Positions 20,011 through 63,228 of a stretch of 64,000 nt of DNA are shown one piece after another (position 1 is the stretch's first letter; each line of letters begins with the position of its first letter). The notes below the pieces were generated by a model, which had not been told where the DNA came from, did not search any database, and worked only from the letters and a program-made list of their open reading frames with translations. The translations under genes and the position numbers were made by a program. The stretch is from Eledone cirrhosa (taxonomy: Eukaryota). Location of the stretch: assembly GCA_964016885.1 (NCBI GenBank), contig OZ024740.1, positions 206,770,001 through 206,834,000 on the forward strand, read 5' to 3'.

Positions 20011-23000
20011 TTATACATTTTATATTCAAAAAAAGAAAATGGTTATAAATGGAAGAAAACCCCTCTGTCTACACTACATAGAACAGCCAAATAACAGCAA
20101 CTTCACCAACATCAGAAACTAGATACACCACCTACCCCATCACCCCTCTGTGTACACTAAACACAACAGCCAGATAACGGAAATTTCACCACCACCACCA
20201 CTAATCTCAGCATAATAATAATGATTACTATTATTATTGCCTCAAGTTTTAGTTTTAACAAAATGCTTAATTCCAATATTAAGAAAATATGTCAACACAT
20301 ATACGCGACTAACGATAATTTCACTAAAGATAATTTCACCACCACTACCACGATGAAAACTCTGGTCAAGTCGACTCAAATTTCTACTCCAACTTCAACA
20401 CCATCACTACAGTAATACGACCACATCACCACCACCACTGCCTCATTATCGCTACCGCCGCTATTCTCTCCCACTACCTCCTGCTAGTTGCTGCTAGCAC
20501 AGCACCGCCACCACCACCACCACCACTGCCTCATTATCACTAACGCCGCTATTCTCTCCCGCTAGCCCCTGCTACATTGTAGAATTCTCACTAAAAGAGG
20601 AAGGCATCAAAATATATAAATAGACTGAATTGATGACCCGGTCAAATAAAAAAAAAAAAAAAATCAAAATCAAAGCAGCACAGCAACAACGAAAAACGTA
20701 AAGAAAATAAGAATGAAGAGAAAAACAAACAGACGGACAGAGAAGGGAAGGGAAAAACTAAGTCAGACATTCAAACACTACATTACAATGAAACTTATGC
20801 TTATTCATTTTTGGGGTTTTTTCTGCCTGTTTGTTTGTTTGTTTATTTGTGTTCGTCTACAGCGTGATAATGCCACACAAAAGTCACGTGGAGTGACGAA
20901 ACCACCGGGGACGATGAATTCACCGGTGGTTATGTAACCGTACATTCGCCAATCCTCGATAAGAGTGTTTAAATGTCGAACCTAAACAGTTCGAATAACG
21001 GTGAAATGGAGACTAGAATGTCATGTGACAGACTCTCACCCAACAGGTGCTCCCTGGCTCAGCAGCAGGGACCTGGCTGTCAACCAAATACTGCTGGTGT
21101 CGGAGGAAGAAGAAGAAGGAAAGGGACCAGAACCAACTAGACGAAAGAATTGAATAGAACTGTTATGCAATGTTACCTGAAGAGTAACCCCAAGGAGAAA
21201 GGCTATAGGAAACGGATGCATAACATCTGGAACGAGATTGGTCCATTTAAATTAGATGAACAAAAACTGGCCGGGCAGGCTCGGGTAATAAGAACTAATG
21301 GGTGGATAAGCGAGCTGGAACTGGAGGAACTGAGCAGAGAGATTAGCTTGGAGATGGAGGGTGGAGTATGCCAGGCAAACGAGCCAGTGGGAAATGAAGG
21401 TAAAGAGGTCGAGAGAACGGAGGAACCACCCGAAGCAGACAATGATCTGAATGCTGAGATAAATAATACCTGGAACAGAGATACGGCCATTGAGGAGATG
21501 AATGCTGACGGGGTAGGACAATATTTGGTAGATATCCTAAACTTAGTGGTAGATGAATTGAACAATGATAGTGGGAGACCTATGAACCTAAGATTTGTAG
21601 ACAGGAAAAAGTTAAAAGAAACAACAGCTAAGGTAAACAAAGTCATCCCATACCTTGAGGCGAGGAGCCTTCACCAGTGCAACAATATACTCAAAGCAAC
21701 AGCAAATACGGTGAGGAAACTACTTGGTATAAAAGCGAGAGGAAACAACAGACAAGAAAGAGCAGAGCCTTGGTGGAAGAAACGACTGAGTGGCCAAATC
21801 AGGGAAATGAGAAATGACATTGGAAAGCTTGAGTCCCTACTGAATGGGACACTAAAAAACATAGACACTAAAAATAGACTGGAAATAAAGTACAAAACTA
21901 GGAGGAAAAAGCTAAATATTATCATAGAGGAACTGAAGCAACGCATTGATGCAAAGAGTGCAAAAATCAGGCGATACGAGAACAGAGTCAGTCAGTATAG
22001 ACAGAACCGCATGTTCTACAACAACCAGAAGATGTTGTTTGGACAGCTTGAAGGGAAAGAAAGAGGCAACGACTTGATCCCTGAGGCGGAACAAACTAAA
22101 ACATTCTGGAGAGGAATATGGGAGCAGGATGTTAAACATAATGACCAGGCAGTGTGGATTGAGACAGTAGAGAAGGAGATCAGTGAACAGGCACACCAAC
22201 AAACTGATTTGAGTATCACAGTTGAAACTCTTAAGGGGCAGGCCAAAAAACTAACCAACTGGAAATCACCTGGCCCAGATGGTGTGCAGGGGTATTGGAT
22301 TAAAAACATAACATCCCTCCACCCGAAACTGACAACCATGTTCAATGACTGCTTGATGTCAGGTGAGGTACCAGAGTGGTTGATAAAAGGTACCACAGTT
22401 CTGATAATGAAAGACCGAATCAAGGGTAATGATGTTACCAACTATAGACCTATCACATGTCTGTCCGTAATGTGGAAACTGTTGACAAGCATTATGTCTG
22501 AGGAAATCTACCATCACCTCCACACAAACAACTTGTTACCGGACGAACAGAAAGGATGCCGAAAGAAGTCACGTGGTACAAAGGACCAGTTACTTATTGA
22601 TAAGATGGTAATGAGGAATTGCAAGAGGAGACACACTGGTCTTGCCATGGGATGGATAGAGTACAAAAAGGCATTTGACATGGTGCCTCATTCTTGGATC
22701 ACCAAAAGCCTGGAGATCTTCAAGGTGGCAGATAACATTAGACAGTTGTTGGGCAAAACTATGAAGTCCTGGGAAACAGAGTTAACATCAACTAGAGAAT
22801 CCTTGGGAAGCGTGAAGATCAAGAGAGGTATCTTCCAGGGAGATAGTCAGTCCCCTCTGTTGTTTGTCCTTGCCCTGATGCCCCTGACCAGTGTACTGCG
22901 AAAAGTGAGAGCAGGATACAGGTTGGGAAAGGGAGGGCTTACCATCAATCACCTCCTCTTCATGGACTATCTTAAGCTCTTCGGGAAGAGTGAGAAGGAG

Positions 23001-24478
23001 TTGGATGTGCTTGTTGACACTGTCCGTATTTTCAGCAATGATATATGTATGCAATTTGGTATTAGTAAGTGTGGAGTCCTTGTGAGGAAGAGGGGTAAAT
23101 TGAGCAGAAGCAAGGGAATCCAGATACCAACAGGTGAGATGATAAAGGAAATTGACTCTGAGGAAGGATACAAGTATTTGGGTGTTCTGGAGGCTGATGA
23201 CATCAAGAACAAAAAAATGAAGGAATTGATAAGAACTGAATACCTTCGGAGAGTAAGGAGCGTATTAAAGTCACATCTGAACAGTAGGAATGCCATAAGT
23301 GCAGTAAATTCCCGAGCTGTGTCTATTATTAGGTACAGTGCGGGAATTCTGAAATGGAATGTTGCTGAACAAAAAGAAATGGATAGAAGACTAGGAAGCT
23401 ATTGACTATCTACAGTATGTTCCACAAGAGGAGTGATGTAGATAGACTCTACTTAAAGAGATCTGAAGGTGGAAGAGGTCTTATCAGCATAGAGGACTGT
23501 GTTCAGATGGAGAAAAACAACCTACACAAATACGTGACTGATAGTAAGGAGCCAATGCTCAGAACTGTACTGAAGGAGGGGACAATATGCCAGGAGATGT
23601 CCAAGGAGGAAATAACATCGAGAAGAAAGAGCAGCCTTGAGGAAAAATCCCTTCATAGTACCTTCTTTGAGAAAACTGAATTTAGAGATCCACAGACATG
23701 GAACTGGTTGAAAAGAGGAGACCTTAAAAAGGCTACAGAAGGAATGTTAATGGCTGCGCAGGAGCAGGCCCTCAAAACGAAGTGGTTGAAACACCACATT
23801 TACAAGGAGGAGGCTAGCCCACTGTGCAGGATCTGCGGAGAGAGACAGAGGAGACTGTGGCTCACATTGTATCCGAGTGTAAACACCTCGCCCAGACTCA
23901 CTATAAGGGCTGGAGACATGATGTGATGGGCAGGGTGATCCACTGGCACCTATGCAAAATAAACAATTTACCACATTCTGAGAAGTGGTATGAGCATAAG
24001 CCAGAGTCGGTGACAGAAAACGATCAGGTGAAGGTGCTGTGGGATTTTAGGATACAGACGGACAAGAAACTGGAACAAAATAGACCTGACCTGGTGGTTT
24101 TGGACAAGGAAAAAAGATCGTGCCTGATTGTGGATGTGGCCTGCCCATTCTACACGAGAGTGCAAGAAAAGGAGAGGGAGAAAATTAACCGATACCAGGA
24201 CTTAAAGTGGGAGGTAAAAAGGATTTGGAACTGCCATGAAGTCAAAGTGATCCCGATTGTCATAGGCACACTAGGGACTATCTCAAAAAGCTTCCAGGGA
24301 TGGTTAAAGAAAATTGGCCCCTTCACGCTTTTTGGAACGCTTCAAAAGGCATGCTTGCTGGGAACAGCAAGAACCCTCCGATACGTCCTGAATATCTGAG
24401 GCTGCAGGTAGTGGCTTGATATTCATTTCAACAAACTTTCCAGTTAACTAACATCAATGACTGAGACTCAAAGAGTAA
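20011..24478 (+). mobile_element. R4-clade (Dong/Rex6-like) non-LTR retrotransposon, family A copy 1, slightly 5'-truncated
   Basis: Myb-like N-terminus, RT (NWKSPGPDG, YRPITCL, GIFQGD, HLLFMD), CxxC..H..C knuckle, RHD and RPDLVV..D..K..KY restriction-like endonuclease. Flanked by (AAT)n. Dong elements are known to target (TAA)n. Confidence 0.93.
20973..24399 (+). pseudogene. Disrupted RT-RLE ORF of Dong-A copy 1
   Basis: TAG at 21138-21140 (TGG in copy 3), FMDY in place of FMDD, frameshifts at ~23388 and ~23845. Confidence 0.88.
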
Positions 24479-28168: not shown

Positions 28169-28232
<64 letters not shown>

Positions 28233-28233
<1 letters not shown>

Positions 28234-31198
28234 CTCTATTATGCATCGGCTAAAGTCACCACTCACTTATGTGGAGTGAAGATGAAAAAACAAAGGAATT
28301 CCCACAAGAAATCTACTTGGCAAGATAACATCAATCGCCAAATAAACCTTCTCCGATCTGACATAGAAATTTTAACAAACTATAAAGTAGGTGAACATGT
28401 TAAACAAACTAAACTTAGAAAATTGAAAAAAAAGTACAGTATAAGATCAACATGTGACATAGACATGCTGATAGAAACAATCAAGCAAAAAGTGTCGGCC
28501 AAAGCTGCTCGTATAAGGCGCTTTGAAAAACGATCTAGATTCTATAAGGACAATAATATGTTCAAAAACAACCAAAGAAATTTCTACAGAAAAATTGGTA
28601 AGTCAACAATAACTGCTAAATCAATACCACCCAAGGAGGAAGTGCAAGAATTCTGGGAAAAGATCTGGGCCAAAGAAAAAGTTCATAACATACATGCCCC
28701 ATGGATAGACAGACAAATGAAAGAACAGCTCACCTTGAAGAACAAACATGGGAAAATATAACAGTTGAACAGCTGCGCTTGGCTCTAAGAAAAACCAGCA
28801 AATGGAAATCCCCAGGAAAAGACAAAATACAAAACTTTTGGATAAATGCCTTCACAGAGTCTCATGAGCTGTTAGCCCAACTTTACAATGAAATAGTTAA
28901 GGAGCCAGAACAGATACCATCATGGCTAGTTAACGGCATTACATTCCTGCTACCGAAGAATGATGAGACAAACAATCCCAAAAATTACAGACCGATAACC
29001 TGCTTGACCACAATGTATAAAATTTTAACATCAGTCCTAACTGAATACACATATGACCACCTGATAACAAATGACCTATTTCCCATTGAGCAGAAAGGGT
29101 GTAAACGAGGCTCATATGGCTGTAAGGATCAGCTTCTGGTTAACAAAATGATACTGGAAGATTGTCATAATAGACACAAAAATCTATCGATTGCTTGGAT
29201 AGATTATAAAAAAGAATTTGATGGTTTGCCACACAGTTGGATTGAAAAATGTTTAGAGATTTTCAAAATATCCCCCGTTATCAGGAGGTTTTTGTCATTC
29301 AGTATGAGGACATGGAGAACGACACTCCTTTTGAATAGTGAAACAAAATCACTGGAAGCTGGAGAAGTTAACATTAATTGTGGAATTTTTCAGGGTGACT
29401 CTTTATCACCGCTTTTATTCTGCATCGCACTTATACCATTAAGTTAAATGCTCAATGAAACAAAACATGGATATAGAGTCTATGACAAAACCATTAATCA
29501 CCTGTTCTACATGGATGACCTGAAACTATTTGCAAAAAATGATGAACAATTGCAAGGGCTATTATCCACTGTGAAGCAGTTCAGTGATGACATTAAAATG
29601 GAGTTTGGACTGGATAAATGCGCCAAAGCAACGTTCACCAGAGGAAAGCTGCTGAAGAGTTCAGACATTAATCTTGATCGGGGGAACGTGATAAGAGAGC
29701 TTGATCAAGAACAAACTTACAAATATCTAGGTGTTTGTGAAGGAGACGGAATCAAGCACTCGACAATGAGGGAAAGGATAAGGAAGGAATGTTACCGCAG
29801 AGTCAGAGCAATCTTAAGAACGGAATTGAATGCAAGGAATAGGATCGATGCCATAAACACGCTTGCCATACCAGTAGTAACCTACAGTTACAATGTCATC
29901 AACTGGTCAAGCACAGAGATCCGTAGGCTCGATACAAAAATCCGAAAATTCTTAACCATGCACAGAATGCATCACTCTAAGGCAGATATAGATAGAATAT
30001 ATCTCCCTAGGAAAGAAGGAGGACGTGGGTTAATCCAGTTAGACATTGCGTTGAAAACTGCAACAATTGGATTATCTACACATCTAAGGGAATCACATGA
30101 TTGGATGATCAAACTCGTTTTGAAACACGAAAGCACCAAAAGATCATATTCCATTACAAAAGATGCACAAAGATACAGTAATGGACTACAAATTTCAGAA
30201 GTCCCATTTACTGCTGAAATGGAAAACACAGAAAAAGCAAAGCAGGTAAAAGTAACTGCAAAGAAAGAACTGCTACAGAAACTGGCTAAGAAATGGCAAG
30301 AAAAGCCTCTGTATGGAAAATACCCAGAGCGAGCTAACAATCCTGATGTTGACAAAACTTTAACCCATCAGTGGTTGGCATCCTCTGGACTGAAATCGGA
30401 GACTGAAGGACTGATTATATCCGCACAAGATCAGTGTCTGCCAACAAAAAATTACCAAGCCAACATAATAAAAAATGGGTGCAGCCCATTATGCCGTATA
30501 TGCAAAAAACAACCAGAGACCATTGACCATATAATTTCAATGTGCAGTCCTATAGCTCCAACCGAATACCTAAACAGGCATGACAGAGCTGCACAATACA
30601 TACATTGGATAATGTGTAAGCATTTTGACCTGCCCCATCAAAAGAATTGGTGGGAGCATCAACCACCTCCCATACTTGAAAAAGATCACATCTCAATCTT
30701 GTGGAACTTTAGCATCCAAACAGACCGAAAAATAGATGCAAATAGACCTGATATAATATTGAAGGACTTTCAAAGGAGGGTATGCCTGCTAATTGATATG
30801 TCTGTTCCAATAGACAAGAATGTATCTATAAAAACATTTGAAAAATTGAGCAAGTATAAGGACCTGGAGATAGAAATTGGAAAAATGTGGAAATTGAGAA
30901 CTAAAACAATACCAGTGGTTGTAGGCGCTCTGGGAATGATACCTAAGGGGTCTAACGACTACTTATCGCAAATCCCAGGAAACCCGCGTATAGGAGAAAT
31001 ACAAAAGATAGTACTAATGGGAACTGCCCATATACTAAGGAAGATCCTGTCAATATAAGTACATCACAAGTCTAAACACTAAGGATGCATGTGTGAATAT
31101 GTGTGTTCTTTCTTGAACATGGCGGACCTTGTTGTCTCTTGAGGTCACTGGTTGTGACTTGGTGATAACTCGTATAAACATAAAGCAAGATAAATGCA

Positions 31199-31200
<2 letters not shown>
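28233..31200 (+). mobile_element. R4/Dong-like element, distinct family B, 5'-truncated
   Basis: WKSPGKD, YRPITCL, GIFQGDSLSP, FYMDD, CRIC..ETIDHIISMC, RHD and NRPDIIL..D..K.KY. One frameshift (~28720) and one stop (29445). (AAT)n on both sides. Confidence 0.93.
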
Positions 31201-31562: not shown

Positions 31563-31755
31563 AATTGTTTCTACTTTTGGCCACAAGGCCAGCAATTACC
31601 CAGTGCATTACTGGTACTTTATTTTATCGACCCCGTAAGGATGAAAGGCAAAGTTAACCTCGGCGGGATTTGAACTCAGAATGGCAAGGGCCGTAACTCT
31701 ATGCATCAAAGCATGGCATCCAACCCTCTACCGATACTGCCAATTCACCGCCCTC
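31563..31755 (-). mobile_element. SINE S1, full length, in (AAT)n
   Basis: Minus strand GGCGGTGAATTGGCAGTATCGG...GAGTTCAAATCCC...GCTGGCCTTGTGGCCAAAAGTAGAAACA then (ATT)n. Confidence 0.9.
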
Positions 31756-31769
31756 TATAATAATAATAA

Positions 31770-34700
31770 TGGATAAGGGAAGAAGACGCACGAGGTGGTA
31801 GAAGGTCATGAAATCGCTCCCGTAAGTTTTGAATTTTTAACATATTTAAATCATTTGTGAAATAACAACTCTTAGTACAAATGTTACGTAAAGCATCCGG
31901 CTTGAGCCCCCAAAAAATTCGGACCCAAAATATATTGTTATAAGGCTCAATATTCAAATATTCAACTTTGTATTGTACATTGTATATTCAAAAAAGAAAA
32001 TGGCTATAAATGGAAGAAGAAGAACCCCTCTCCCCTGTCTACACTATATAGAACAGCCAAACAACACCAATCTCACCAACACCAGAAACTAGATACACCA
32101 CCTACCCCATCACCTCTCTGTGTACACTAAACACAACAGCCAGATAACGGAAACTTCACCACCACCACAACCAATCTCAACATAATAATGATAATAATAA
32201 ATACTATTATTATTGTCCCAAGTTTTAACAAAATGTTTAATTCCAACATTAAGGGAATTTATGTCAACACATGTACGCGACTAACCCCATAGATTCACCG
32301 AACGGACACCAGTAACGACAACGCCGCCCATCCATCATTACTACCACTATCCCATCACCGCCGCCACCACTCCTTCATTGCTACCACAGCTACAACACCA
32401 TCACTACAGTAATACGATCACATCACCACCACCACTGCCTCAGTATCGACATCACCACCACCACTGTCTCAGTATCGCTACCGCCGCTATTCTCTCCCAT
32501 TGCTTCCTGCTAGTTGCTGCTAACACAGCAGCAACACCACATTAAAGAATTCCTACTAAAAAAGAGGAAGGCATCAAAATATATAGATAGACTCAAAAGA
32601 AAAAACAAAAATCAAAACCAAAGCAGCACAGCAACAACAACAACAAAAAAAAAAAGAAAAACAAACAGAGAAAAACAAAAACAAAAAAACGTAAAGAAAA
32701 TAAGAATGAAGAGAGAAACAAGCGGACGGACAGAGAAGAGAAGGGAAAAACTAAGTCAGACATTCGAAAACTACATTACGATGAAACTTATGCTTATTCA
32801 TTTTTGGGGTTTTTTCTGCCTGTTTGTTTGTTTGTTTATTTGTGTTCGTCTACAGCGTGGTGATAATGCCACACAAGAGCCAAGTGGAGTGACGCAACCA
32901 CCGGAGAGGGTGAATCCACAGATGGTTATGTAACCATACATTCGCCAATCCTCGATAAGAGTGTTTAAATATCGAACCTAAACAGTTCGAATAACGGTGA
33001 AATGGAGACTAGAACGACATGTGACAGACTCTCACCCAACAGGTGCTCCCTGGCTCAGCAGCAGGAACCTGGCTGTCAACCAAATACTGCTGGTGTCGGA
33101 GGAAGAAGAAGAAGGAAAGGGACCAGAACCAACTGGACGAACGAATTGAATAGAACTGTTATGCAATGTTACCTGAAAAGTAACACCAAGGAGAGGGGCT
33201 ATAGGAGACGGATGCATAACATCTGGAACGAGATTGTCCATTTAAATTAGATGAACAAAAATTGGCCGGGCAGGCTCGGGTAATAAGAACTAATGGGTGG
33301 ATAAGCGAGCTGGAACTGGAGGAACTGTGCAGAGAGATTAGCTTGGAGATGGAGGGTGGAGTATGCCAGGCAAACGAGCCAGTGGGAAATGAAGGTGAAG
33401 AGGTCGAGAGAACGGAGGAACCACCCGAAGCAGACAATGATCTGAATGCTGAGATAAATAATACCTGGAACAGAGATACGGCCATTGAGGAGATGAATGC
33501 TGACGGGGTAGGACAAGATTTGGTTGATATCCTAAACTTAGTGGTAGATGAATTGAACAATGATAGTGGGAAACCTATGAACCTAAGATTTGTAGACAGG
33601 AAAAAGTTAAAAGAAACAACAGCTAAGGTAAACAAAGTCATCCCATACCTTGAGGCGAGGAGCCTTCACCAGTGCAACAATATCCTCAAAGCAACAGCAA
33701 AAGCGGTGAGGAAATTAGTTGGCATAAAAGCGAGAGGAAACAACAAACAAGAAAGATCAGAACCTTGGTGGAAGAAACGACTGAATGGTTAAATCAGGGA
33801 AATGAGAAATGACATTGGAAAGCTTGAGTCCCTACTGAATGGGACACTAAAAAACATAGACACTAAAAGTAGACTGGAAATAAAGTACAAAACTAGGAGG
33901 AAAAGCTAAATATTATCATAGAGGAACTGAAGCAACGCATTGTAGCAAAGAGTGCAAAAATTAGGCGATACGAGAGCAGAGTCAGTCAGTATAGACAGAA
34001 CCGCATGTTTGACAACAACCCGAAGATGTTGTTTGGACAGCTTGAAGGGAAAGAAAGAGGCAACGACTTGATCCCTGAGGCGGAACAAACTAAGACATTC
34101 TGGAGAGGAATATGGGAGCAGGATGTTAAACATAATGACCAGGCAGTGTGGATTGAGACAGTACAAAAGGAGATTAGTGAACAGGCACACCAACAAACTG
34201 TGAGTATCACAGTTGAAACACTTAAGGGGCAGGCCAAAAAACTAATCAACTGGAAATCACCAGGCCCAGATGGTGTGCAGGGGTATTGGATTAAAAATAT
34301 AACATCCCTCCACCCGAAACTGACAACCATGTTCAATGACTGCTTGATGTCAGGTGAGCTACCAGAGTGGTTGACAAAAGGTACCACAGTTCTGATAATG
34401 AAAGACCGAATCAAGGGTAATGATGTTACCAACTATAGACCTATCACATGTCTGTCCGTAATGTGGAAACTGTTGACAAGCATTATGTCTGAGGAAATCT
34501 ACCATCACCTCCACACAAACGAGTTGTTACCGGACGAACAGAAAGGATGCCGAAAGAAGTCCCGTGGTACAAAGGAACAGTTACTTATTGATAAGATGGT
34601 AATGAGGAATTGCAAGAGGGGACACACTGGTCTTGCCATGGGATGGATAGACTACAAAACGGCATTTGACATGGTGCCCCATTCTTGGAACACCAAAAGC

Positions 34701-36450
34701 CTAGAGATCTTCAAGGTGGCAGATAACATCAGACAGTTGTTGGGCAAGAGTATGAGGTCCTGGGAAACAGAGTTGACATCAACTGGAGAATCCTTGGGAA
34801 GCGTGAAGATCAAGAGAGGTATCTTCCAGGGAGATAGCCTGTCCCCTCTGTTGTTTTTCCTTGCCCTGATGCCCCTGACCAGTGTACTGCGAAGAGTGAG
34901 AGCAGGATACGGGTTGGGAAAGGGAGGGCTTACCATCAATCACCTCCTCTTCATGGACGATCTTAAGCTCTTCGGGAAGAGTGAGAAGGAGTTGGATGTG
35001 CTTGTTGACACTGTCCGTATTTTCAGCAGTGATATATGTATGCAGTTTGGTATTAGTAAGTGTGGAGTCATTGTGATGAGGAGGGGTAGGTTGAGCAGAA
35101 GTAACGGAATCCAGATACCAACAGGTGAGATGATAAAGGAAATTGACTCTGAGGAAGGATACAAGTATTTGGGCGTTCTGGAGGCTGATGGCATAAAGAA
35201 CAAAAAAATGAAGGAATTGTTAAGAAATGAATACATTCGGAGAGTAAGGAGCGTATTGAAGTCACATCTGAACAGCAGAAATGCCATAAGCGCAGTAAAT
35301 TCCCGAGCTGTGTCTATTATTAGGTACAGTGCGGGAATTCTGAGATGGAATGTTGCTGAACAAAAAGAAATGGATAGAAGACTAGAAAGCTATTGACTAC
35401 CTACAACATATTCCACAAGAGGAGTGATGTCGATAGACTCTACCTAAGGAGATCTGAGGGTGGAAGAGGTCTTATCAGCATAGAGGACTGTGTTCAGATG
35501 GAGAAAAACAACCTACACAAATACGTGACTGATAGTAAGGAGCCAATGCTCAGAACTGTACTGAAGGAGGGGACAATAGGCCAGGGGATGTCCAAGGAGG
35601 AAATAACATAGAGAAGAAAGAGCAGCCTTGAGGAAAAATCCCTTCATAGTACCTTCTTTGAGAAAACTGAATTTAGAGATCCACAGACATGGAACTGGTT
35701 GAGAAGAGGAGACCTTAAAAAGGCTACAGAAGGAATGTTAATGGCTGCGCAGGAGCAGGCCCTCAAAACAAAGTGGTTGAAACACCATATTCACAAGGAG
35801 GAGGCTAGCCCACTGTGCAGGATCTGTGGAGAGAGAGGAGACTGTGGCGCACATTGTATCCGAGTGTAAACACCTAGCCCAGACCTACTATAAGGGCTGG
35901 AGACATGATGTGATGAGCAGGGTGATCCACTGGCACCTGTGCAAAGTAAACAATTTACCACATTCTGAGAAATGGTATGAGCCAGAGGCGGTGATGGAGA
36001 ACGATCAGGTGAAGGTGCTGTGGGATTTTAGGATACAGACGGACAAGAAACTGGAACACAATAGACCTGACCTGGTGGTTGTGGACAAGGAAAAAAGATT
36101 GTGCCTGATTGTGGATGTGGCCTGCCCATTCTACACGAGAGTGCAAGAGAAGGAGAGGGAGAAAATTAACCGATACCAGGACTTAAAGTGGGAGGTAAAA
36201 AGGATTTGGAACTGCCATGAAGTCAAAGTGATCCCGATTGTCATAGGCGCACTAGGGACTATCTCAAAAAGCTTCCAGGGATGGTTAAAGAAAATTGGCC
36301 CCTTCACGCTTTTTGGAACGCTTCAAAAGGCATGCTTGCTGGGAACAGCAAAAACCCTCCGATACGTCCTGAATATCTGAGGCTGCAGGTAGTGGCTTGA
36401 TATTCATTTCAACAAACTTTCCAGTTAACTAATGACTGAGACTCAAAGAG
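31770..36450 (+). mobile_element. Dong-A copy 3, apparently full length with ~1.2-kb 5' UTR; ORF disrupted
   Basis: Starts directly after (AAT)n. The 5' region from 31975 aligns with 20012. ORF pieces span 33002-36380 with FMDD and RLE motifs. Confidence 0.93.
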
Positions 36451-36616: not shown

Positions 36617-36889
36617 ATAATAATAATGGTTTCTTTATTGGCCACAAGGGCCGACACGAAGAAAAACATTAGAGACGGCACAGATCAGTACAGGACGATA
36701 CAAAGTGGGTTTTGGTCGTGTAAACAGGTTATAACAAAATCGGGCTAGAAATCCAAAAAAATTCAAACAACAAAAATTCCCCAAGAAGGGGGAAACCTCC
36801 GAGGGTCACTCGTGGTGAAAAAAACACAAAAGACCACGGCCACACTGACCACCAGGGCAAGCGCTCTCTCTCACTTTTCCCACTCCTCA

Positions 36890-39800
36890 CTCTACAGGCG
36901 TATACTCAGAGCAGGCCCGTTCACTCGGACCAGACTCGTCACTTTCACCTACCTTTCAACAAACTTACTAGAAGACAGCACTTGCCTCTCCACCCTGATT
37001 TTCCTCTTCAAGTGAAACTTGAAAAAGTTAATCAGGGATTGGCCGGAGAGGAAAGTGTCCGTCTTCAACCCTTTTAACCTTGTCTACCACACAATCTCTT
37101 TCGCCATGGCCACCAGGCAGATGAAAACTGCCTGCCCTTCCCGACTAAAGGAAGAGGGCGGGGCAATCCTCACAATGGACTCAGTCGATAACCGTCAGCA
37201 ATCCTCGGGCACTGAGCGAGTGTGTGCAGGACGGTTTCGTGCCCTGCGCGCATCTCGGACAGGCTCAGCTGACAGCACTTCCGTGCCTGTAGAGCTTATC
37301 CCGAACCGGCAACGCTCCCCGGTAGCACTGCCAGGCCAGGGGTTTCTGGAAGTTGTCCATAGACCCCGGTCTGAAAATTCTCTTGAAGAGAGTGAACAGC
37401 TGATCGTCTTCGACGCCCAGGGTCTCCCCGAGATCGTCGTCGCTCTTTCCCTCCCCTCAATAGAATGCCGAGGTGGATGTTCCACCGATACTAGTGCCCA
37501 GCTGGTAGATGCAGTGAGCGCTTGGAGACATTCCAGCTTCCAAGTGCTATCCTTCGGTCTTTTCCTGATCCAGGACTGCAGCTCCGTCAAGGAGACGAGT
37601 TGGGGAAAAGCGCGTCTGGCAAACGGCGACCACACCTGTTCACCGTCAAGGAAGCACCAGAGATGTCGCAGCCTCAGCGCATGTTTGCGCATCATCAGCC
37701 ACGGCATGCCTAGTCCTCCACGCAACGGGTGTTGACAGCAAATGGATCGTCTGACCATGGGAGCACATCCCTTCCACAAAAAGCGGAAGAGTCGGCGCTC
37801 CATTTTGGTCAGAGTTGGACGGGGGAAAGGTACGACGGTCAGGCGGTAGCAGATGACGGACGCGATGTACGCATTCGTCACCTCCGCCCGATCTTTCAGA
37901 GACAGTCTCTTCTCGGCCCATTTCTGGGTGAGAGAGGCCACCCTGCTCGTCACCTCGCTCCAGTTTTTCTCCATCTGGAGGTCCAGACTGAACCAGACCC
38001 CGAGTAATTTAACGGGTCCTTCCGTCCAGCGCCCTACAACGCTGTCGGACGGCATGGACATGCCTCTCCAGGTGCCGAGTTGCAAGCCCACTGACCTTTC
38101 CTGGTTTATCTTTGCTCCTGTCACCGCTTCGTATTCTTTGAGAGCGGCGCCAAGCATCTGGACATGTTTGGTGCGCGACACCACCACGGTGACGTCGTCG
38201 GCGTAAGCTGACATGGATGTCCCGCATCCCAGTTCACATGGGACTCTCCTCATCGTCTCCAATTTGTGCAGTAATAGCTCTAGGGCCAGTACGTACAAGA
38301 GGGAGGAGAGGGGGCAACCCTGGCGGACCGAGCGCATGATGCTGAAAGGCTGCGATTCACCTTCACAATCGAGCAGATGTCGCTGTGCACCGCAGCGATC
38401 CAGCCCCTAAAAACGGCCCGAAGCCGGTAGCCTCGAGGACCGCAGCCAGGTACCGATGGTCGACCCTATGAAATACTTTAGATTGATCCAAGTTGATCAG
38501 GGCTCCACCCGTACCTGGTTCCTTAACCACCCTCTCTATGATGTATCGCATGACAAGGAGCTTGTCGTGGTTGGATCTGTCCAGAATGACGCATGTCTGC
38601 GCGTCTCCCACCAAGTCACCGACTACAAGCGCCAATCTCTTTGCTAACACCTTGACCAAAATCTTAAACTCTGCGTTTAGCAGAGTTATGGGCCTGAAGT
38701 TGTCTATAACGTCCCCCTTGTTCGGGTCTTTTCTCAGCAGCGCCACCGCTCCCCGGCTCACAAAACTGGGAATGCTCCCGTTCTGCTGCCGGTTGCAGTA
38801 GACATCTGCCAAGAGGTCACCGAACAAGTCTGGCATATACGCATAAAGCTCGTAGGGCAGACCATCCAAACCTGGTGATTTACCCCTTGTGCAGTCAGAG
38901 ATCACTTCTCGTATTTCACCTGTTATCGACTTTTCGCAGCACTTCGCTGCGGTCGTCGAGAGCCGCGGCAGTCCGTCGATGTTTGCACCGAAGTCCATAC
39001 TCCGATCCGGCCCGCCGCCGCACACATCTGCTCGGGTTCGAGCAATATGCACCCGTTTTGATCAGGCAAAGACCGAATTGTGGACTTGTTGCCACGTCGC
39101 GCCTCCACCACCCGGGCCCATTGAATGGCTTTCGTCCCCTCGTGTCTTAGAGCACGCACTCTAGCTCTGACAACGCAGCCTTCATGCTTTGCGTTGAAGA
39201 ATTGGTCGAGTGCCAATCTCGCCGCAAGCACGTCGATTGCGATGTCTGTCCTAAACGCATCTTCTAGCTTTCTAACTAGCTTTCCCTCTACTTTATTTTC
39301 CTCTATCACTACTGCTTTGCTAAACCTTATCGATTCTACCCTAATAGCTCTTTTCAGGGTAAACCACCACCTGTTGTTGACGATCGCACCCGTCAATGCA
39401 CGCTTAACTAATTCTCTAATCCGTTCTCTGTAAGCTTTGCGCGCCGGAATAGACGCGTTCAGCTTCCAGTAACCGGGCCCTTGCCTATGGAGTTTATCTA
39501 AGTCAACTTCACAGATCACAAATTTGTGGCCTGTGTAGTCGACTACTTTAAATTGTGGACAACCTACACTAGCCTTATCTGCTTCCCTACAGAATATCCT
39601 ATCTAAATACGATCTGGATGACCCGATGCGGTTTGCCCGTGTCCACATTGGCACATTCGGATAATCCAGTCTATACCTGTCAGACAGTTCAAAACGTCTG
39701 AGCAGGTTGTTGAGGCTTTTATACCCTCCACCCTGTCTACTAGTCCCACATAATCCCAGCGTGCATCTAAGATACCGTTCCAGTCGCCCACTAACACTAA

Positions 39801-40197
39801 AGAGCGTTCCAAGAAAGGTTTCTAGACATCTGAAGAAATCTGACCGTCCTACTGTTGGGGCGTAGACGGCTAGTAGCCTGAAAGCATTGCTCTCGCTGCC
39901 GGTAACGTTCAGCACCACTGACTTACATTCTGGGTCCAGGAAGATGGCCCGTATGGCGAGATCCAAGCCTCTCCGAAAAAGCACAGCAACTCCTCCCTTC
40001 AATCCCGGACGACTGGGAGATGCGTATACATTGTAGCCGCCGAAGATCGGTGCGTAGGCTCGTGTTTGGGAGATTCTGGTCTCGCTGATGGCCACCACAT
40101 CTATGTTTAGTGACCTGAGGTCATTAAGCAGGTGACTCTGCTTCCAAGATGACCCCAGGCCACCTACATTTATACTGCCTATTCTAAGTACGCCCAT
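36890..40197 (-). pseudogene. Tx1-A ORF2 (APE-RT-zf), frameshifted
   Basis: ORF pieces 38923-40233, 38363-39052 and 37195-38337 are colinear with the family B protein. Confidence 0.88.
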
Positions 40198-40392
40198 GTT
40201 GGGTGAAGAACGGGGTAAGTGAGAAAGGATCACTTACCTTGATCGTGTGGGGAAGGGACAGTACAACCTTCCCTTCAGCTGGTCATGGGTGTCTCCAAGG
40301 TGATATCTGTATATATTCTTTTGGGGAGTGACCCTCTAAAATCCCCAACGCAGTGGGGGAATTTTTGCTTTAATTGTTTATAGTCTTCCAGT

Positions 40393-41733
40393 TTAATGTC
40401 GACAATTGTAATGTTTTTGGGCAATGTTCTTGGTGTTGGTGGGGTGTGGTAATTTAAGTCTGAAATATCGGTGTGGTGTTTTATGTTCTATTAATCCTTT
40501 GTGTGCAATGTTTATGGCTGTGTACCTTTGTGTGTGTGTGTGTGTGGAGGTGGGGGGGGGGTGCTGTTGGGTGTGAGTGGTTTGTTGTGTTTGTGGTGAT
40601 GTTTGGTGGTGGTGTGGTTGTTGTGTTTGCGATGTTGCTGGTGTGGTTATTGGTGGTGATGCTTGTGGTGGTGATGGTGGTGGCGTTGCTTCAAGTCTCC
40701 TTACAGCCTTTACCCCTCTTTCTTTGCCCTCGCTTTTGGAGGGAGAAGCTGTGGTGTTTTGCGTTTGTTTTTTTTTTTGTTGACAACCGTTTTCCACTCC
40801 TCAGCCGCCTCATACTTCATGTCCGACTGTGAGAGGTCGGGGTGGGGTATGAGTTCTATCCTCTCATTTGTCTTTGTTGTTGTGTTGTAGTTGGTGGTGG
40901 TGGTGGAGCCTGGTCTGCCGTTTTTGGCACAGGTGCAGCAAGTGCAACTGTTTCTGTTGCTGTTATTGCCGCCGATGCTTTTGTTGTCCATGGCTTTGGT
41001 GTGGGTGCCACAGACGTTGTCCTACTCTCTGTAGAAGATCCTGACTTCCTCGCTGCCTGCCCTGTTTCTGATGGCAGCGGTTCCGGCGTTGGAAGGAGGG
41101 GGACCTTCGCCTTAGTTATCTACTGTGGGCATAAGGCCCTGAGGTGAGACTTCGATCCTCAGTTGTTATACTTTAGGTGCCTTCCTTTCACAGATTTGGG
41201 AAGTTGGGAGCCATTCTCGATGTTTATTATGTTGGGAATAGCGCTGATGCAGTCCTAGTCAGTTTGGATGAGCATCTCCATTCCAATACCGGACCAGTCC
41301 TCTCTCCCCAAAGTTTGTACCTGCAGAATTGTCGTTTTGTCCTCGATGCCCACAAGCACAGATACGACCAGCCAAGGCACGGATACGTAGGACAGGACCT
41401 GCGTCACCCTGACCTTTGCATTTTTTCCGCAGTAAAAAGGGACTAATATTATTTCATCACTCCGTAGGGTTGAGATTTTGCTTCCTGGGTGGTAGCAAAA
41501 AGGACCTCAACAGTAGCATACTTTTTGCCTCGGGTGATGTGGGTTTTCCGTGCCCACACAGTCTCCAAGACCTTTTGTATTTGGGCTTCCGAGGCTCTCT
41601 CCACACGACGCGATTTCGTGGCAATCGTGCGGTATGACACTATGCGTCGCTCTTGTTCCCCCAGGAAGTCGGTTGGTGGTTTCAAGGAGAATGAAAATTC
41701 AGTTTTGGTTATCATGTGTCTTGCGACCGCCAT
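40393..41733 (-). pseudogene. Tx1-A ORF1 (gag-like), frameshifted
   Basis: Lies upstream of ORF2. Knuckle remnant KYNN*GSKSHLRALCP and basic WKTVVNKKK motif. Confidence 0.65.
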
Positions 41734-42344
41734 CTCCTCCTCTCTGAGCAGGACTGTCTACATTGTGTATCACCCTCGCAAAAGAGAGTGTCCCCCTTTT
41801 CAGCGGCACCATTGTTGTTGCCGCTACTGCTGCTACTGGTCTTGTTTATGCTGTTGCTGTTGATACTGCTACAACCGGTGTTGTTGGTGTTGCTGCTGCT
41901 ACTGCTACTACTTGTTATTGTTACTGCTGCTACTTCCTTTGTTGCCGTTTTGCCAAATGCAGCTGCTTCTCGACCGCCACGTGATAAAGAGGTGACGATG
42001 AAGAAGACGAAAAGGAAAGCGAGACTCCACGCTGACAGTTTGGTGAAGAACGGTTTTGAGTGAAAACAAGGTAGAGAAAGAGATTTCTTGTGTGACTCCG
42101 TTTTTCTTTTTTTGGGTGTGTGGGGTGGGGGTGGGGGTGTGTGGGGTGTGTGCGTATTTGCCAAATGTAAAGTTCAAATTGGAATTTAGCCCCGAATAAT
42201 TTCGACCACCTCAAGAGAAGCGGGCTGTGTTTGAACACAAAACAATATAAATTTCTACAATAAGTTCGCAATAAAAACTGTTAAAAAATCACAAACTTAC
42301 GGGAGCAAAATTTCCTGCGACGTGTATACTTCCACAATAATAAT

Positions 42345-44897: not shown

Positions 44898-44941
44898 CAC
44901 ATTTGACATAATAAAAAAAACTAATAAAACAAATTACTAAC

Positions 44942-47900
44942 CTTATCAGGACAGTCATAGTTGGTACACTTGATGTTCCCGTCTGTACACCGGCACACAT
45001 TGCATTTATCTTCAGACATAAATGTTTGGTCGGCTTCGAAAACTTTTCCTTTATGTTCACATTTCGATTTAGGACAGTACATTTTAGTACATCTTACTTG
45101 ACCAAACTGTCCACATGTACATGTATTGCAGTCCTTTTTAAACGATTCTCCGACAGAATAGGTTTGTCCGTTGAATACGCATGGTTTGGGGCATATTTTC
45201 TGTTCACATTGGACTCTTCCATCCTCATGGCACTGACATTTATTGCAATCATTGTAGAATATAGAACCAACATCATAACGTTTACCATTGTATGTACATT
45301 GACAAGGGTAATTTGTACATTGGACTTGTCCATTTTGTTGACAGGTACAGGTGTTACAGCCCTGTTTAAATGTAGTACCGATATTATAGACCTGGTTGTT
45401 GTATGTACATTTACAGACGTTACTGGTACATTGAACATCTCCATTTGACTGACAAACACATTGGTTGCATTCTTCATTAAATGTTTGACTAATTTGATAA
45501 ACCTGTCCTTTATATGTACATTGACAACGGTTATTTGAACATTGGACTTGTCCATTTTGTTGACAGGTACAGGTGTTGCAGTCCTCACTGAATTGTTGTC
45601 CGAAATTATAAACTCTATTGTTGTAGGTACAGGTACATGGGTTATTTGTACACTGTATACGACCATCTATTTGACATGTGCATGTATTGCAGTCCTTGCT
45701 AAATGTAGCACCAATGGGGTAAGATCTTCCATTTTCAAAACATTTACAAACCTTGTTAGAACACTGCACTGTACCACTAGATAAACATTCACATTGGTTA
45801 CATTCTTCATTAAATCTTTGACGAATTTGATAAACCTGTCCTTTATATGTACATTGACATGGGTTATTTGTACATTGGACCTGTCCATTTTGTTGACAAG
45901 TGCAGGTGTTGCAGTCCTCACTGAATTGTTGTCCGAAATTATAAACTTTATTGTTATAGGAACAAGTACATGGGTTACTTGTACACTGTATACGACCATC
46001 TATTTGACAGGTACAAGTGTTACAGCCCTGATTAAATGTAGCACCAATGGGGTAAGATATTCCATTTTCAAAACAATTACAAACCTTGTTTGAACACTGC
46101 ACTGTACCACTAGATAAACATTCACATTGGTTACAATCATCGTTAAATCTTTGACGAGTTTGATAAACCTGTCCTTTATATGTACATTGACACTGCTTAT
46201 TTGTACATTGGACTTGTCCATTTTGTTGACAGGTACAAGTGTTACAGTCCTGATTAAATGTAGCCCCGATATTATAGACCTGGTTGTTGTATGTACATTT
46301 ACAGACGTTACTGGTACATTGAACATCTCCATTTGACTGACAAGTACATTGTTTACATCCTTCATTAAATCTTTGATTAATTTGGTAAACCTGCCCTTTA
46401 TATGTACATTGACACGGCTTATTTGTACATTGAACCTGTCCATTTTGTTGACAGGTACAAGTGTTGCAGTCCTTGCTAAATGTAGCACCAATGGTGTAAG
46501 ATCTTCCATTTTCAAAACATTTACATGGCTTGTTAGAACATTGCATTGTACCACTAGATAAACATTCACATTGGTTACAATCATCGTTAAATCTTTGACG
46601 AATTTGATAAACCTGTCCTTTATATGTACATGGACATGGGTTATTTGTACATTGGACCTGTCCATTTTGTTGACAAGTGCATGTATCGCAGTCCTTTTGA
46701 AATGTAGCACCAATGGGGTAAGATCTGCCATTTTCAAAACATTTACATGGCTTGTTAGAACACTGCACTGTACCACTAGATAAACATTCACATTGGTTAC
46801 ATTCTTCATTAAATCTTTGACGAATTTGATAAACCTGTCCTTTATATGTACATTGACATGGGTTATTTGTACATTGGACCTGTCCATTTTGTTGACAAGT
46901 GCAGGTGTTGCAGTCCTCACTGAATCGTTGTCCCAAATTATAAACTTTATTGTTATAGGAACAGGTACATGGGTTACTTGTACACTGTATACGACCATCT
47001 ATTTGACATGTGCATGTATTGCAGTCCTTGTTAAATGTAGCACCAATGGGGTAAGATCTTCCATTTTCAAAACATTTACAAACCTTGTTTGAACACTGCA
47101 CTGTACCACTAGATAAACATTCACATTGGTTACAATCATCGTTAAATCTTTGACGAGTTTGATAAACCTGTCCTTTATATGTACATTGACACTGCTTATT
47201 TGTACATTGGACTTGTCTATTTTGTTGACAGGTACAAGTGTTACAGTCCTGATTAAATGAAGCCCCGATATTATAGACCTGGTTGTTGTATGTACATTTA
47301 CAAACCTTATTAGTACATTGAACATCTCCATTTGACTGACAAACACATTGGTTACAATCATCGTTAAATCTTTGACGAGTTTGATAAACCTGTCCTTTAT
47401 ATGTACATTGACACTGCTTATTTGTACATTGGACTTGTCCATTTTGTTGACAGGTACAAGTGTTACAGTCCTGATTAAATGAAGCCCCGATATTATAGAC
47501 CTGGTTGTTGTATGTACATTTACAAACCTTATTAGTACATTGAACATCTCCATTTGACTGACAAACACATTGGTTACATTCTTCATTAAATCTCTGATTA
47601 ATCTGATAAACCTGTCCTTTATATGTACATTGACACTGCTTATTTGTACATTGAACCTGTCCATTTTGTTGACAGGTACAGGTGTTGCAGTCCTTGCTAA
47701 ATGTAGCCCCGATATTATAGATCTGGTTGTTGTATGTACATTTACAGACGTTACTGGTACATTGAACAACTCCATTTGACTGACAAACACATTGGTTACA
47801 TTCTTCATTAAATCTCTGATTAATCTGATAAACCTGCCCTTTATATGTACATTGACACTGCTTATTTGTACATTGAACCTGTCCATTTTGTTGACAGGTA

Positions 47901-49089
47901 CAGGTGTTGCAGTCCTTGCTAAATGTAGCCCCGATATTATAGATCTGGTTGTTGTATGTACATTTACAGACGTTACTGGTACATTGAACATCTCCATTTG
48001 ACTGACAAACACATTGGTTACATTCTTCATTAAATCTCTGATTAATCTGATAAACCTGTCCTTTATATGTACATTGACACTGCTTATTTGTACATTGGAC
48101 TTGTCCATTTTGTTGACAGGTACAAGTGTTACAGTCCTGATTAAATGAAGCGCCGATATTATAGACCTGGTTGTTGTATGTACATTTACAGACGTTACTA
48201 GTACATTGAACATTTCCATTTGACTGACAAACACATTGGTTACATTCTTCATTAAATCTTTGACTAATTTGATAAACCTGTCCTTTATATGTACATTGAC
48301 AACGGTTATTTGAACATTGGACCTGTCCATTTTGTTGACAGGTACAGGTGTTGCAGTCCTTGCTAAATGTAGCACCAATGGGGTAAGATTTTCCATTTTC
48401 AAAACATTTACAGACCTTGTTAGAGCACTGCACTGTACCACTAGATAAACATTCACATTGGTTACATTCTTCATTAAATCTTTGACGAATTTGATAAACC
48501 TGTCCTTTATATGTACACTGACACGTATTCTTTGTACAATCTACTTGACCATTACCTCGACAATAGCAGGTATTGCAATCTTCTTCAATTTTCTCTCCTA
48601 CATTAAATATCTTTCCTCTGTAGTAACATTTACACATTTTATCAGTACATTTAACTGTTCCATCACTTAAACATTCACATGTATTGCATTCATCAGAGAA
48701 TGTTTGTCCGGTTTGATAGCGAATGTTCTTGTGATAACATTCACATCCTTGATTGCTACACTGCACTGTTCCGCTAATTTGACAAGTACAAGACTTACAT
48801 CCATCTTTGAAGGTCTGTCCATGGTTGTAGACATTACCTTTATATTGGCACTGGCATACATTATTTGTACATTCCATTTGACCATTGGCTTTACATACAC
48901 ATTTATTACATGATTGTTGAGATGTCTGTCCTACAGCGTAACGTTTACCTTGATACCTACATGTATGTCGCTGTCCATAGCCACAACTTTTGCTCGTACA
49001 CAGTGCTTGGCCCGTTTCAGTACACACACATGTATTGCAGTCGATTTTAAATGCTCCATTATATTGTTTACCATTATGGGTACATTCGT
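44942..49089 (-). CDS. Exon 2: 37 tandem six-Cys modules (pacifastin-like / half-VWC) of a secreted ~1407-aa protein
   Basis: 4148-bp uninterrupted frame. Module C-x16-CN-x-C-x-C-x3-G-x3-C-[TS]-x3-C. Acceptor ttttttacAG at 49091-49090 is in phase 1 with exon 1. Donor AAG|GTTAGT at 44942/44941. Confidence 0.92.
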
Positions 49090-49374
49090 CTGTAAAAAAT
49101 CATATGATCAATAATTATATTTATATCTAACACTGTAATATCAATATGGTATATATTCTATTGTACATAAGATATTAAGCTATTGATTTTAATTTCCTGT
49201 ATGTAGGGAGATACTTGCATTTAATAATACCATGTATATCTATATTCTATTATACGTAAGAAATTAAGATATCCACGAAAGATATGAATTTAGTGTGTCT
49301 AGCGGAATTTTAAAACTTAATGATACACACACACATATACATATATATATACATACATACATTCATACATACAT

Positions 49375-61303: not shown

Positions 61304-62455
61304 TGGAGTTTGTGCAGTGGGGTGATAGTGGAGGGTGGTGCTGGGTGATAGCTCGAATGTTTTTTTCCAGTTCTTTTGCCAGATTCATTATGGCTAAAAA
61401 AGAGGAAGAAGTTTCCTGTTTAGAAGACTGTTGGTGACTGTGGTAGTGGTTATTTTTATGTAGGTTATGGTTTTTGTTTTTGCTTTTATTTTTAATTTTA
61501 TTTTCATTTATCCGACGGGTCCCCGGGAGATGGGTAAAGGGACAATCCGGTCTAAACACAATCTGTCTCGCAGGGAAAAACGGCAGATTTGTGGATTCCT
61601 TGTTTGAGTTATTGGTGGTTGTGTTGGTGTTAAATTAGAGTATGTATTATGGTGGTGGCTGTTTGTGGGGATAGATCGTTTTGTCCTAGGTAAATGGGTG
61701 AATTTGCAGCCACTATCCGTACATATTCTATAGCGTAGAGAGTAGCGGCAAATGATGGGGTTTCGAGTGGGTGGGTATGTGGGTGTGGGTGTTGTGAGAG
61801 GTGTAGATGATGGTTTGGGTAGGATTTGACGACCTTTGTGGACTGTGGGAGGGAGAGTTCTTGTTCTGGTATTAGAAGGTAAATTCCTTGACATAGCAGT
61901 AGACAAAAATGTTGTAGTAGTAGTAGTAGTAGTAGGCAGAGATGTTGGCAGTGGTGATGATTGGACTGCTGGGCCAGAGAAGGGATGTGGCGTTTCATGC
62001 TGTGAGACAGAGGCCACTGGGGGGTCAATAGTTTCATTTAGTAGATCGGCCATTGTTGATGAATCAAGGAGTGGTTCACACTGTTGTTGTCGTTGTTGTT
62101 GTTGTTGTTGCTGTTGTTGTTGTTGTAGCTGTTGTTGTTGTTGTTGCTGTTGTTGTTGTTGCTGTTGTAGCTGCTGTTGTTGTTGTTGCTGCTGCTGGAC
62201 AGCATTCGAAGAGAAAACACACCGTAGTTTATCCAAATGTTTATTGATTAATTTAAAAGCAATTTCGATTTGCTTTAATTTATTTTGAATCTGTTGTTCA
62301 GATCGAGTTTTCAAAAATTGAACTGTACGTTTAGCAATGTCGTTCAGAGATGAAGCATCTATATTTTCTGTTTGGGAAAGGCAATGCCATGTGTTTATTA
62401 GAATGTCGATTTCATTATCAGACCAGTTCTGTTTGGATTTTTGCTGGTTAGCCAT
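61275..62455 (-). CDS. CR1-clade ORF1: Myb/SANT-like N-terminus, polyQ, Thr/Pro linker, two CCCH zinc fingers (one frameshift at ~61555)
   Basis: NWSDNEIDILINTW..RSEQQIQNKLKQI; CRYSLRYRICTDSGCKFTH; CRFSLRDRLC/FRPDCPFTH. Confidence 0.7.
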
Positions 62456-62467
62456 TCTAGTTTTGAG

Positions 62468-63120: not shown

Positions 63121-63228
63121 TTGTTTGTTTGGTTTTGTCTTGTGGTTTTGTTTTGTGGCTGTGTGACTTGCTGCTTACTCGGGGAGAGAAGTAAAAACAC
63201 GTCCTTATACTTCAACTGCTCAACTGCT

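Follow-up and report, generated by a model that had tools for sequence, protein, structure and literature searches.

Pr77, a hallmark of trypanosomatid retroelements, is a short 5' promoter module common to several of their families; its carriers form one related group and it holds a ribozyme, not a splice donor, unlike the module of Dong and Tx1 LINEs described here. U1 telescripting is grouped with unspliced 5' splice sites as a protection of transcripts. Closer systems are found within L1, where recruitment of 5' UTRs is known: a lineage swaps its 5' end, and non-sister ORFs share one (PMC3600994, PMC5381506), the capture mechanisms discussed being read-through and template switching (PMC3600994). 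Human L1 possesses a donor at +98 of its 5' UTR, and its spliced genomic copies, the SpIREs, number 131 of 6,609 (~2%) (PMC5860796). In mRNA/L1 5' chimeras, first exons end exactly at donors, in some cases without a LINE acceptor (10.1101/2025.02.02.635956). In mammalian cells, Restrictor is blocked by a start-proximal 5' splice site that stays unspliced (PMC12211998), and introns have been described in antisense TART RNA (PMC1636488). In Octopus vulgaris, Dong-R4 and L1-Tx1 are among the recently active repeats (PMC13282606, PMC9115989).

The present locus lies in the genome of Eledone cirrhosa (contig OZ024740.1, positions 206,770,001 to 206,834,000); "the window" designates this whole stretch of 64,000 nucleotides. 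Its repeats, taken by themselves, would suggest an octopod host. The phenomenon is real and of known kinds (L1 promoter recruitment, SpIREs) in a new form, a donor-bearing leader probably captured across clades. As in L1 recruitment, the Dong 5' end was most likely taken from another family and is common to non-sister ORF lineages. Whereas L1 recruitment takes place among L1 families or from unknown sources, the exchange would here lead from an APE-bearing, two-ORF Tx1 to an RLE-bearing, single-ORF Dong, and the module spread on to a second Dong family, 29-40% identical in protein sequence to the first. No report of an APE-to-RLE 5' capture, or of these donors, that before Tx1 ORF2 included, was found in the open-access literature searched.

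LINEs of the window

20014..24475, + strand: Dong-A copy 1, 5'-truncated in its leader, starting directly 3' of an (AAT)n tract
28228..31200, + strand: Dong-B copy, 5'-truncated; full-length members of Dong-B carry the same leader
31777..36450, + strand: full-length Dong-A-type RLE LINE with a broken ORF, flanked by (AAT)n tracts
33002..36380, + strand: single ORF of this Dong-A, broken here (RT, C-terminal Cys/His knuckle, restriction-like nuclease)
36630..42335, - strand: Tx1/L1-type two-ORF LINE, full-length, broken
63173..63227, - strand: 5' end of a CR1-type LINE of similar layout, with a donor-like site at 63178

The Dong elements have the attributes of RLE-type LINEs: a single ORF (1135 amino acids in one copy, L110) with RT, knuckle and restriction-like nuclease but without APE, and an insertion preference evident from copies sitting in (AAT)n tracts. 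The knuckle and the nuclease were recognised by eye from their usual pattern. The Dong/R4 label, adopted from the sequence-only reading, is provisional; the closest solved relatives of the protein are R2 proteins. Among 120 homologs listed, two bear a name, "hypothetical protein" in both cases. The second element has two ORFs, with APE, RT and a zinc-binding domain in ORF2, whose closest solved relative is L1 ORF2p (E 3e-51). Tx1 is the name that the sequence-only reading gave to this L1-type element, and four loci (L032, L034, L114, L115) are called Tx1 5' ends solely from their UTR and ORF1-like start.

A motif common to Dong and Tx1 5' ends

31777..31821, + strand: first exon of Dong, 45 nt, presumed internal-promoter part
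31816..31829, + strand: shared 14-mer, in which a C-rich hexamer precedes a consensus 5' splice site (GT at 31822)
42293..42306, - strand: the same 14-mer in the Tx1 5' UTR (GT at 42300)

The sequence-only reading had noticed an identical motif in the third Dong copy and the full-length Tx1, and it is indeed present at 31816-31829 (+) and 42306-42293 (-), ~45 nt from the Dong 5' end and ~36 nt from that of Tx1. These are the two matches of the window (0.16 expected by chance), and the 3.0-Gb genome contains it exactly 2,324 times, as compared to 5 occurrences of the reversed control. The first 30 of these loci to be read comprise 29 Dong 5' ends, which begin at the equivalent of 31777 after (AAT)n or (GAA)n, and one Tx1-type end. 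A pattern excluding the usual Dong context yields 174 matches in the genome against 25 for its control; 30 such loci correspond to 26 Tx1-type ends, which represent five groups or more and include that of the window, and to four Dong variants.

The motif is not a general feature of Tx1. None of 20 Tx1 loci chosen through ORF2 homology carries it within two substitutions: two have a one-base insertion variant, seven a weaker donor at the same place, ten are degenerate and one is truncated. Six Tx1 families were found by means other than the motif: two display a full consensus donor, while in TB, TC, TD and TE the best donor of the first 60 nt is no better than in shuffles, a fraction of 0.20-0.79 of which reaches its score. 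TC is the source of intact ORF2 copies, yet lacks a strong first donor. Hexamers similar to that of the motif are kept in TB and in a third Dong family, Dong-C, alongside a donor that is missing or has degenerated.

The looser motif reported for the CR1 5' end proved to be family-wide (148 matches against 2 for the control). In all 15 CR1 loci read, this motif is followed by one and the same leader, the front being altered in two, and homology between the CR1 and Tx1 UTRs is absent outside the motif. To note, a contig from another organism (X6) matches 31773-31877 with four differences, which documents presence only.

The Dong leader and the Tx1 5' UTR

31832..32016, + strand: collinear with Tx1 5' UTRs (motif not counted), with the hairpin of Tx1 in decayed form
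32000..32002, + strand: ATG placed as the ORF1 start of Tx1 is, opening a short reading frame only
32003..32780, + strand: low-complexity leader, probably a decayed Tx1 ORF1 start, judged from composition only

Homology to Tx1 5' UTRs extends ~200 nt past the motif, as far as the place where ORF1 begins in Tx1. The alignment path runs from a T-rich stretch through the hairpin region and an A-rich run to the ATG at 32000. With the motif excluded, four Dong leaders aligned to 14 Tx1 UTRs give best z values of 5.4, 10.8, 5.5 and 6.3. Against 15 UTRs, their top-3 score is reached in 1, 0, 0 and 0 of 300 shuffles, the same test being at chance for the Dong-C (191/300) and CR1 (116/300) controls. 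An HMM placed three of the four leaders above all 250 shuffles and missed the fourth. The hairpin is a stable fold in many Tx1 families and not in Dong. The 640 nt after the relic ATG resemble the low-complexity start of Tx1 ORF1, with a triplet correlation of 0.68, a value as high being seen in 2 of 180 background pieces. This remainder of the leader is not alignable to Tx1 ORF1, matches at the protein level are of low complexity only, and none of the eight leader lineages listed holds a long reading frame.

In an unrooted tree, six Dong leaders form one branch (support 98/97) amid an unresolved radiation of 20 Tx1 UTRs, without being nested inside Tx1, which indicates one origin for the Dong leaders and no direction of transfer. 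Dong-C has a different leader in the only 2 of its 13 copies that reach the 5' end. The Dong 5' end is thus homologous, well beyond a short motif, to that of an element that is not its sister, and by this comparison the leader is most likely a Tx1 5' end acquired by capture. The direction is inferred to be from Tx1 to Dong, as favoured by the relic ORF1 start, the decayed hairpin and the other leader of Dong-C. An exchange of the module between clades, as the sequence-only reading had envisaged, is therefore supported by collinear homology.

All 29 Dong leaders run on into a Dong: Dong-A in 19 cases, Dong-B in nine and an internally deleted Dong in one. Leader and body of Dong-B are separated by a SINE tail, the residue expected from capture by read-through. 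Several 5'-truncated copies (window 20014, L092, L207, L208, L210) begin inside the leader just after the (AAT)n target; the leader hence belongs to the reverse-transcribed template and is physically present on the mobilised RNA. This excludes that it is a separate element, the circumstance that the sequence-only reading had named as fatal to its proposal.

Constraint on the motif

Among nine leader lineages that are 58-89% identical, no invariant run is longer than that of the motif (11 nt, the next being 6 nt). Mean identity amounts to 1.00 for the hexamer, 0.93 for the donor and 0.48-0.86 for the remaining segments; two of 11 representatives were dropped from this comparison for deletions, one of which removes the motif. 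It is kept in 41 of 44 distinct leaders, a conservation that is inflated because most Dong loci were collected through the motif, and two leaders found otherwise (L095, L198) lack it. The lineages show what appears to be selection on the motif in Dong, 11 nt being held strictly while the flanks and the hairpin drift.

It is very improbable that the motif merely came along with the captured 5' end as a neutral passenger. Such a reading would accommodate the amplification of several Tx1 families without a strong donor, and part of the conservation would be owed to the mode of collection, but it explains neither an invariant run nearly twice as long as the next one among such divergent lineages nor the exact repetition of the motif in Tx1 families whose first exons differ.

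Splicing at the first donor

31822..31996, + strand: GT-AG segment of 175 nt, the equivalent of which (167-169 nt) is exactly missing in L230 and L231
32800..32855, + strand: proposed acceptor (pyrimidine tract and AG), conserved in Dong-A, no joined copy
42099..42101, - strand: mutated ORF1 start of the window Tx1, an ATG in its sisters L037, L212 and L213
42026..42034, - strand: proposed Tx1 acceptor, Gln-Arg-Gly codons of ORF1 in sister copies

The main leader lineage comprises 1,766 copies with an intact donor and six matches without it. In two of the latter, L230 and L231, the first exon is joined to the base following the AG that precedes the relic ATG, 167-169 nt being gone as compared to their nearest relatives. 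Both are full-length Dong-B copies with native tails, and they differ in contig, flanks and sublineage and display no microhomology at the join. As in SpIREs, an exact GT-AG segment is missing from copies with the hallmarks of retrotransposition. The search pattern fixes the 5' break by design and leaves the 3' break free; two independent 3' breaks at the same AG make splicing the best explanation of L230 and L231. The proposal that the donor is splice-competent thereby gains support, and this first donor of Dong appears, from the genomic copies, to be usable and rarely used.

Spliced-type copies account for 2/1,770 (0.11%, CI 0.01-0.41), or at most 4/2,190 (0.18%) when two joins lacking an AG are counted, the searches missing second exons that start with G or have T in second position. 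The remaining matches are a point mutant (L232), an unrelated sequence (L233) and L228/L229, one duplicated event whose join lies 5 nt farther upstream. The last was considered as a spliced product and is ambiguous, as the AG is absent in its relatives. So is L065, the one AG-less join among nine matches in a minor lineage of 420 copies: it is joined exactly at the donor, but none of five sisters has an AG on the 3' side, and similarity permits a template switch. Exact donor joins without an acceptor liken L065 and L228/L229 to the mRNA/L1 chimeras; in the chimeras, however, host exons were inserted singly, whereas here an entire LINE 5' end, in unspliced form, founded families of ~2,200 full-length copies.

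The spliced Dong copies did not amplify, and since L230 and L231 are full length, spliced RNA can be inserted full length. A conserved promoter-proximal donor with rare, non-amplifying spliced genomic copies recalls human L1 and its SpIREs, L1 transcripts being likewise mostly unspliced. As compared to human L1 (~2%), spliced Dong copies are about tenfold rarer (0.1-0.2%), the donor matches the full consensus and lies much closer to the start, and a second consensus donor precedes ORF2. The human L1 donor overlaps a transcription-factor site (RUNX3), and no such overlap is known here.

In the TC family, no spliced copy was found at either donor-like position (1 and 10 matches). An AG in A-rich context precedes the ORF1 start in several Tx1 families and not in several others; a scan for CAG or TAG only overlooks the A-rich acceptor actually used. 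Contigs from four sequencing runs that match 31740-33400 and the young Tx1 L083 display no joint at either donor among the matches listed; as assembled contigs are prone to drop rare forms, this speaks neither for nor against splicing.

A derivation of the head from a spliced-leader or other small nuclear RNA, serving as a trans-splicing donor, is the least credible of the alternatives. A short capped exon followed by a donor would have the appropriate layout, Tx1 elements mobilise snRNA-headed SINEs (PMC4494074), and the two donor joins without a 3'-side AG, L065 and L228/L229, would be in keeping with it. First exons, however, differ widely among families, with no sign of an invariant leader exon; an Sm-like site occurs in one of 28 5' ends; Rfam returned seven weak matches for eight loci, none of them relevant; and a stand-alone short copy is absent among the loci read.

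The proposal of a retained 5'-UTR intron

The sequence-only reading had placed introns of 1034 and 269 nt between the first donors and AGs at 32855 in Dong (20862 in copy 1) and 42032 in Tx1, both upstream of the first ORF, spliced RNA being translated and unspliced RNA serving as template. The positions and lengths are correct; the introns themselves find no support. Not one genomic copy is joined at 32855, as against 1,766 and 420 unspliced 5' ends in this genomic test. The search for intron-less copies that had been suggested did yield two, L230 and L231, with the acceptor at the equivalent of 31996 instead of 32855. In Tx1, the presumed acceptor falls inside ORF1 of L037 and L212, downstream of the ORF1 ATG, so that an intron 42300-42032 would delete the ORF1 start. 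The CGTGG following both AGs is incidental, since these five bases vary among Dong-A sublineages.

A retained intron is accordingly improbable in Dong as well, although the donor is usable, all 24 distinct Dong-A sequences retain the pyrimidine tract and the AG at 32855, the unspliced leader contains 11 ATGs, and a strict use of unspliced RNA as template would likewise leave few spliced copies. Against it, joins at 32855 are missing even though spliced RNA inserts full length; three ATGs persist between this acceptor and the ORF start; the splice of the observed type, to 31996, removes no upstream ATG; and Dong-B lacks the Dong-A acceptor stretch altogether. Furthermore, L1 proteins favour the message that encodes them, and mobilisation in cis extends to spliced L1 RNA (PMC5860796).

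A second donor upstream of Tx1 ORF2

40232..40237, - strand: second donor-like site of consensus sequence, preceding the ORF2 ATG (40197) by 40 nt

This site is present in 50 of 58 distinct Tx1 ORF2 starts, at 37-40 nt in 46 of them; the eight misses are five substitutions, a deletion, a truncation and a mis-anchored duplicate. It falls in ORF1 phases 0, 1 and 2, and coding therefore does not explain it. A pyrimidine tract follows, without an AG before the ORF2 ATG, and no spliced copy from this donor was found (10 and 0 matches). An ORF1-ORF2 fusion through a mini-intron of 53-59 nt was considered and rejected: phases differ among families and no joined copy exists among the matches.

The second donor bears on a possible, though clearly less probable, account of the same capture, in which the motif is a downstream promoter element acting at the DNA level, overlapping a donor by chance and with splicing as a side effect. 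The hexamer is invariant in the Dong lineages and its relatives in TB and Dong-C outlast the donor; its position is constant at about +27 to +45; and mutation of the human L1 donor cut RNA to ~18%, an effect that the authors ascribed to RUNX3 (PMC5860796). Against this account, the second site is 2 kb distant from any start, and what it retains across three phases is precisely the six bases complementary to U1; seven of ten TC variant copies, moreover, share a one-base loss restoring the full consensus donor. Both readings could nevertheless coexist. Conservation of the hexamer equals or exceeds that of the donor, yet the hexamer pairs poorly with U1, which points to a second constraint, probably at the DNA level.

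A probably captured leader with a proposed U1 site

The explanation that we prefer, at a probability of roughly 55%, is that the first ~230 nt of the Dong leader were captured from Tx1 and that the donor was kept as a rarely spliced, promoter-proximal U1 site. U1-complementary sequence is conserved apart from coding in Dong, in the motif-bearing Tx1 families and at the ORF2 site; it is not at the 5' site of TB, TC, TD and TE, and the four of six independently found Tx1 families without a first-60-nt donor better than shuffles speak against the U1 reading. The donor likely helps transcription rather than yielding a separate mRNA.

Capture could have proceeded by a sense insertion of Dong into the AAT-rich start of Tx1 ORF1 followed by read-through from the Tx1 promoter, or alternatively by template switching, and the leader would then have passed to Dong-B by read-through across a SINE tail. 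Binding of U1 without splicing would guard a long, intron-less, A-rich transcript from early termination. One unspliced RNA would be both message and template, the ORF being reached through reinitiation past short upstream frames. The leader has in common with Restrictor-blocking sites a strong donor near the start, inefficient splicing and an otherwise intron-less-looking transcript; the block itself is shown in mammalian reporters and not for LINEs or for this host (PMC12211998).

More broadly, and tentatively, the intron-less LINEs of this genome may mimic intron-bearing genes, unpaired donors behind the start and ahead of ORF2 recruiting U1 and averting early termination; the module would have been traded over the deepest divide within LINEs, from Tx1 to Dong-A and on to Dong-B, with a parallel origin in CR1. 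If the captured, donor-bearing leader is what it seems, promoter recruitment would extend from exchanges within L1 to a transfer from an APE to an RLE element that founded ~2,200 full-length copies. For the question of how LINE transcripts lacking introns escape the surveillance by which non-coding RNA is removed, the system would make a clean test case, with two defined donor sites, families that naturally have or lack donors, and spliced copies of natural origin.

Donors in the 5' ends of other LINEs

TC, a Tx1 family (two-ORF APE LINEs) found without the shared motif, carries a weak donor at its 5' site. A one-base loss common to seven copies (L235-L237, L239, L241-L243; L-numbers are loci read from the species' own genome, outside the window numbering), which lie on several contigs, converts this weak site into a full consensus donor. 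In Tx1 5' UTRs (for example L031, L070, L080, L097 and the window copy), one or two hairpins immediately precede the ORF1 start; they show apparently compensatory differences from family to family, and none of them matched Rfam.

about 42170-42230, minus strand: Tx1 5' UTR hairpin region, window copy

In the window, an A-rich AG stands directly ahead of the CR1 ORF1 start (62455-62461, minus strand), the same arrangement as that of the acceptor used in Dong, the single-ORF RLE LINE.

L162, L166-L168: second CR1-type family

This second family opens at its 5' end with a word that we take to be YY1-like, and its 5' UTR of ~800 nt includes a full consensus donor at ~+310, possibly marking a real 5'-UTR intron. 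RTE-type 5' ends (L173, L174, L176) have no strong donor close to the start; L174 contains a stretch presumably resembling an HDV-like ribozyme, a putative assignment. A further RT fragment is, we assume, Penelope-like in appearance.

L104:4904-5866, minus strand: RT fragment

Insertion sites and other window features

Dong, Tx1 and a SINE are stacked together in shared (AAT)n tracts (L096-L102, L110 and window 20014-43287), where Dong and Tx1 lie in opposite orientations. Many Dong 5' junctions show (GAA)n expansions. Two window features lie outside the LINEs.

44921-49099, minus strand: open frame of 1392 codons with tandem Pacifastin/VWC-type modules (27 Pacifastin stretches), probably a single giant host exon
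4507-12210: CAC-rich tandem array of 7.7 kb, with open frames exceeding 2,000 codons on both strands

Dong leaders

Within a young Dong-A sublineage (L002, L013, L022, L030, L218), segments of the leader, the Dong 5' end, are internally duplicated in tandem.

L196, L198: Dong-C 5' ends

The Dong-C leader, A-rich and ~1 kb long, differs from that of Dong-A and Dong-B. It includes a word presumed to be YY1-like and the C-rich hexamer without the donor, which suggests that it was captured independently.
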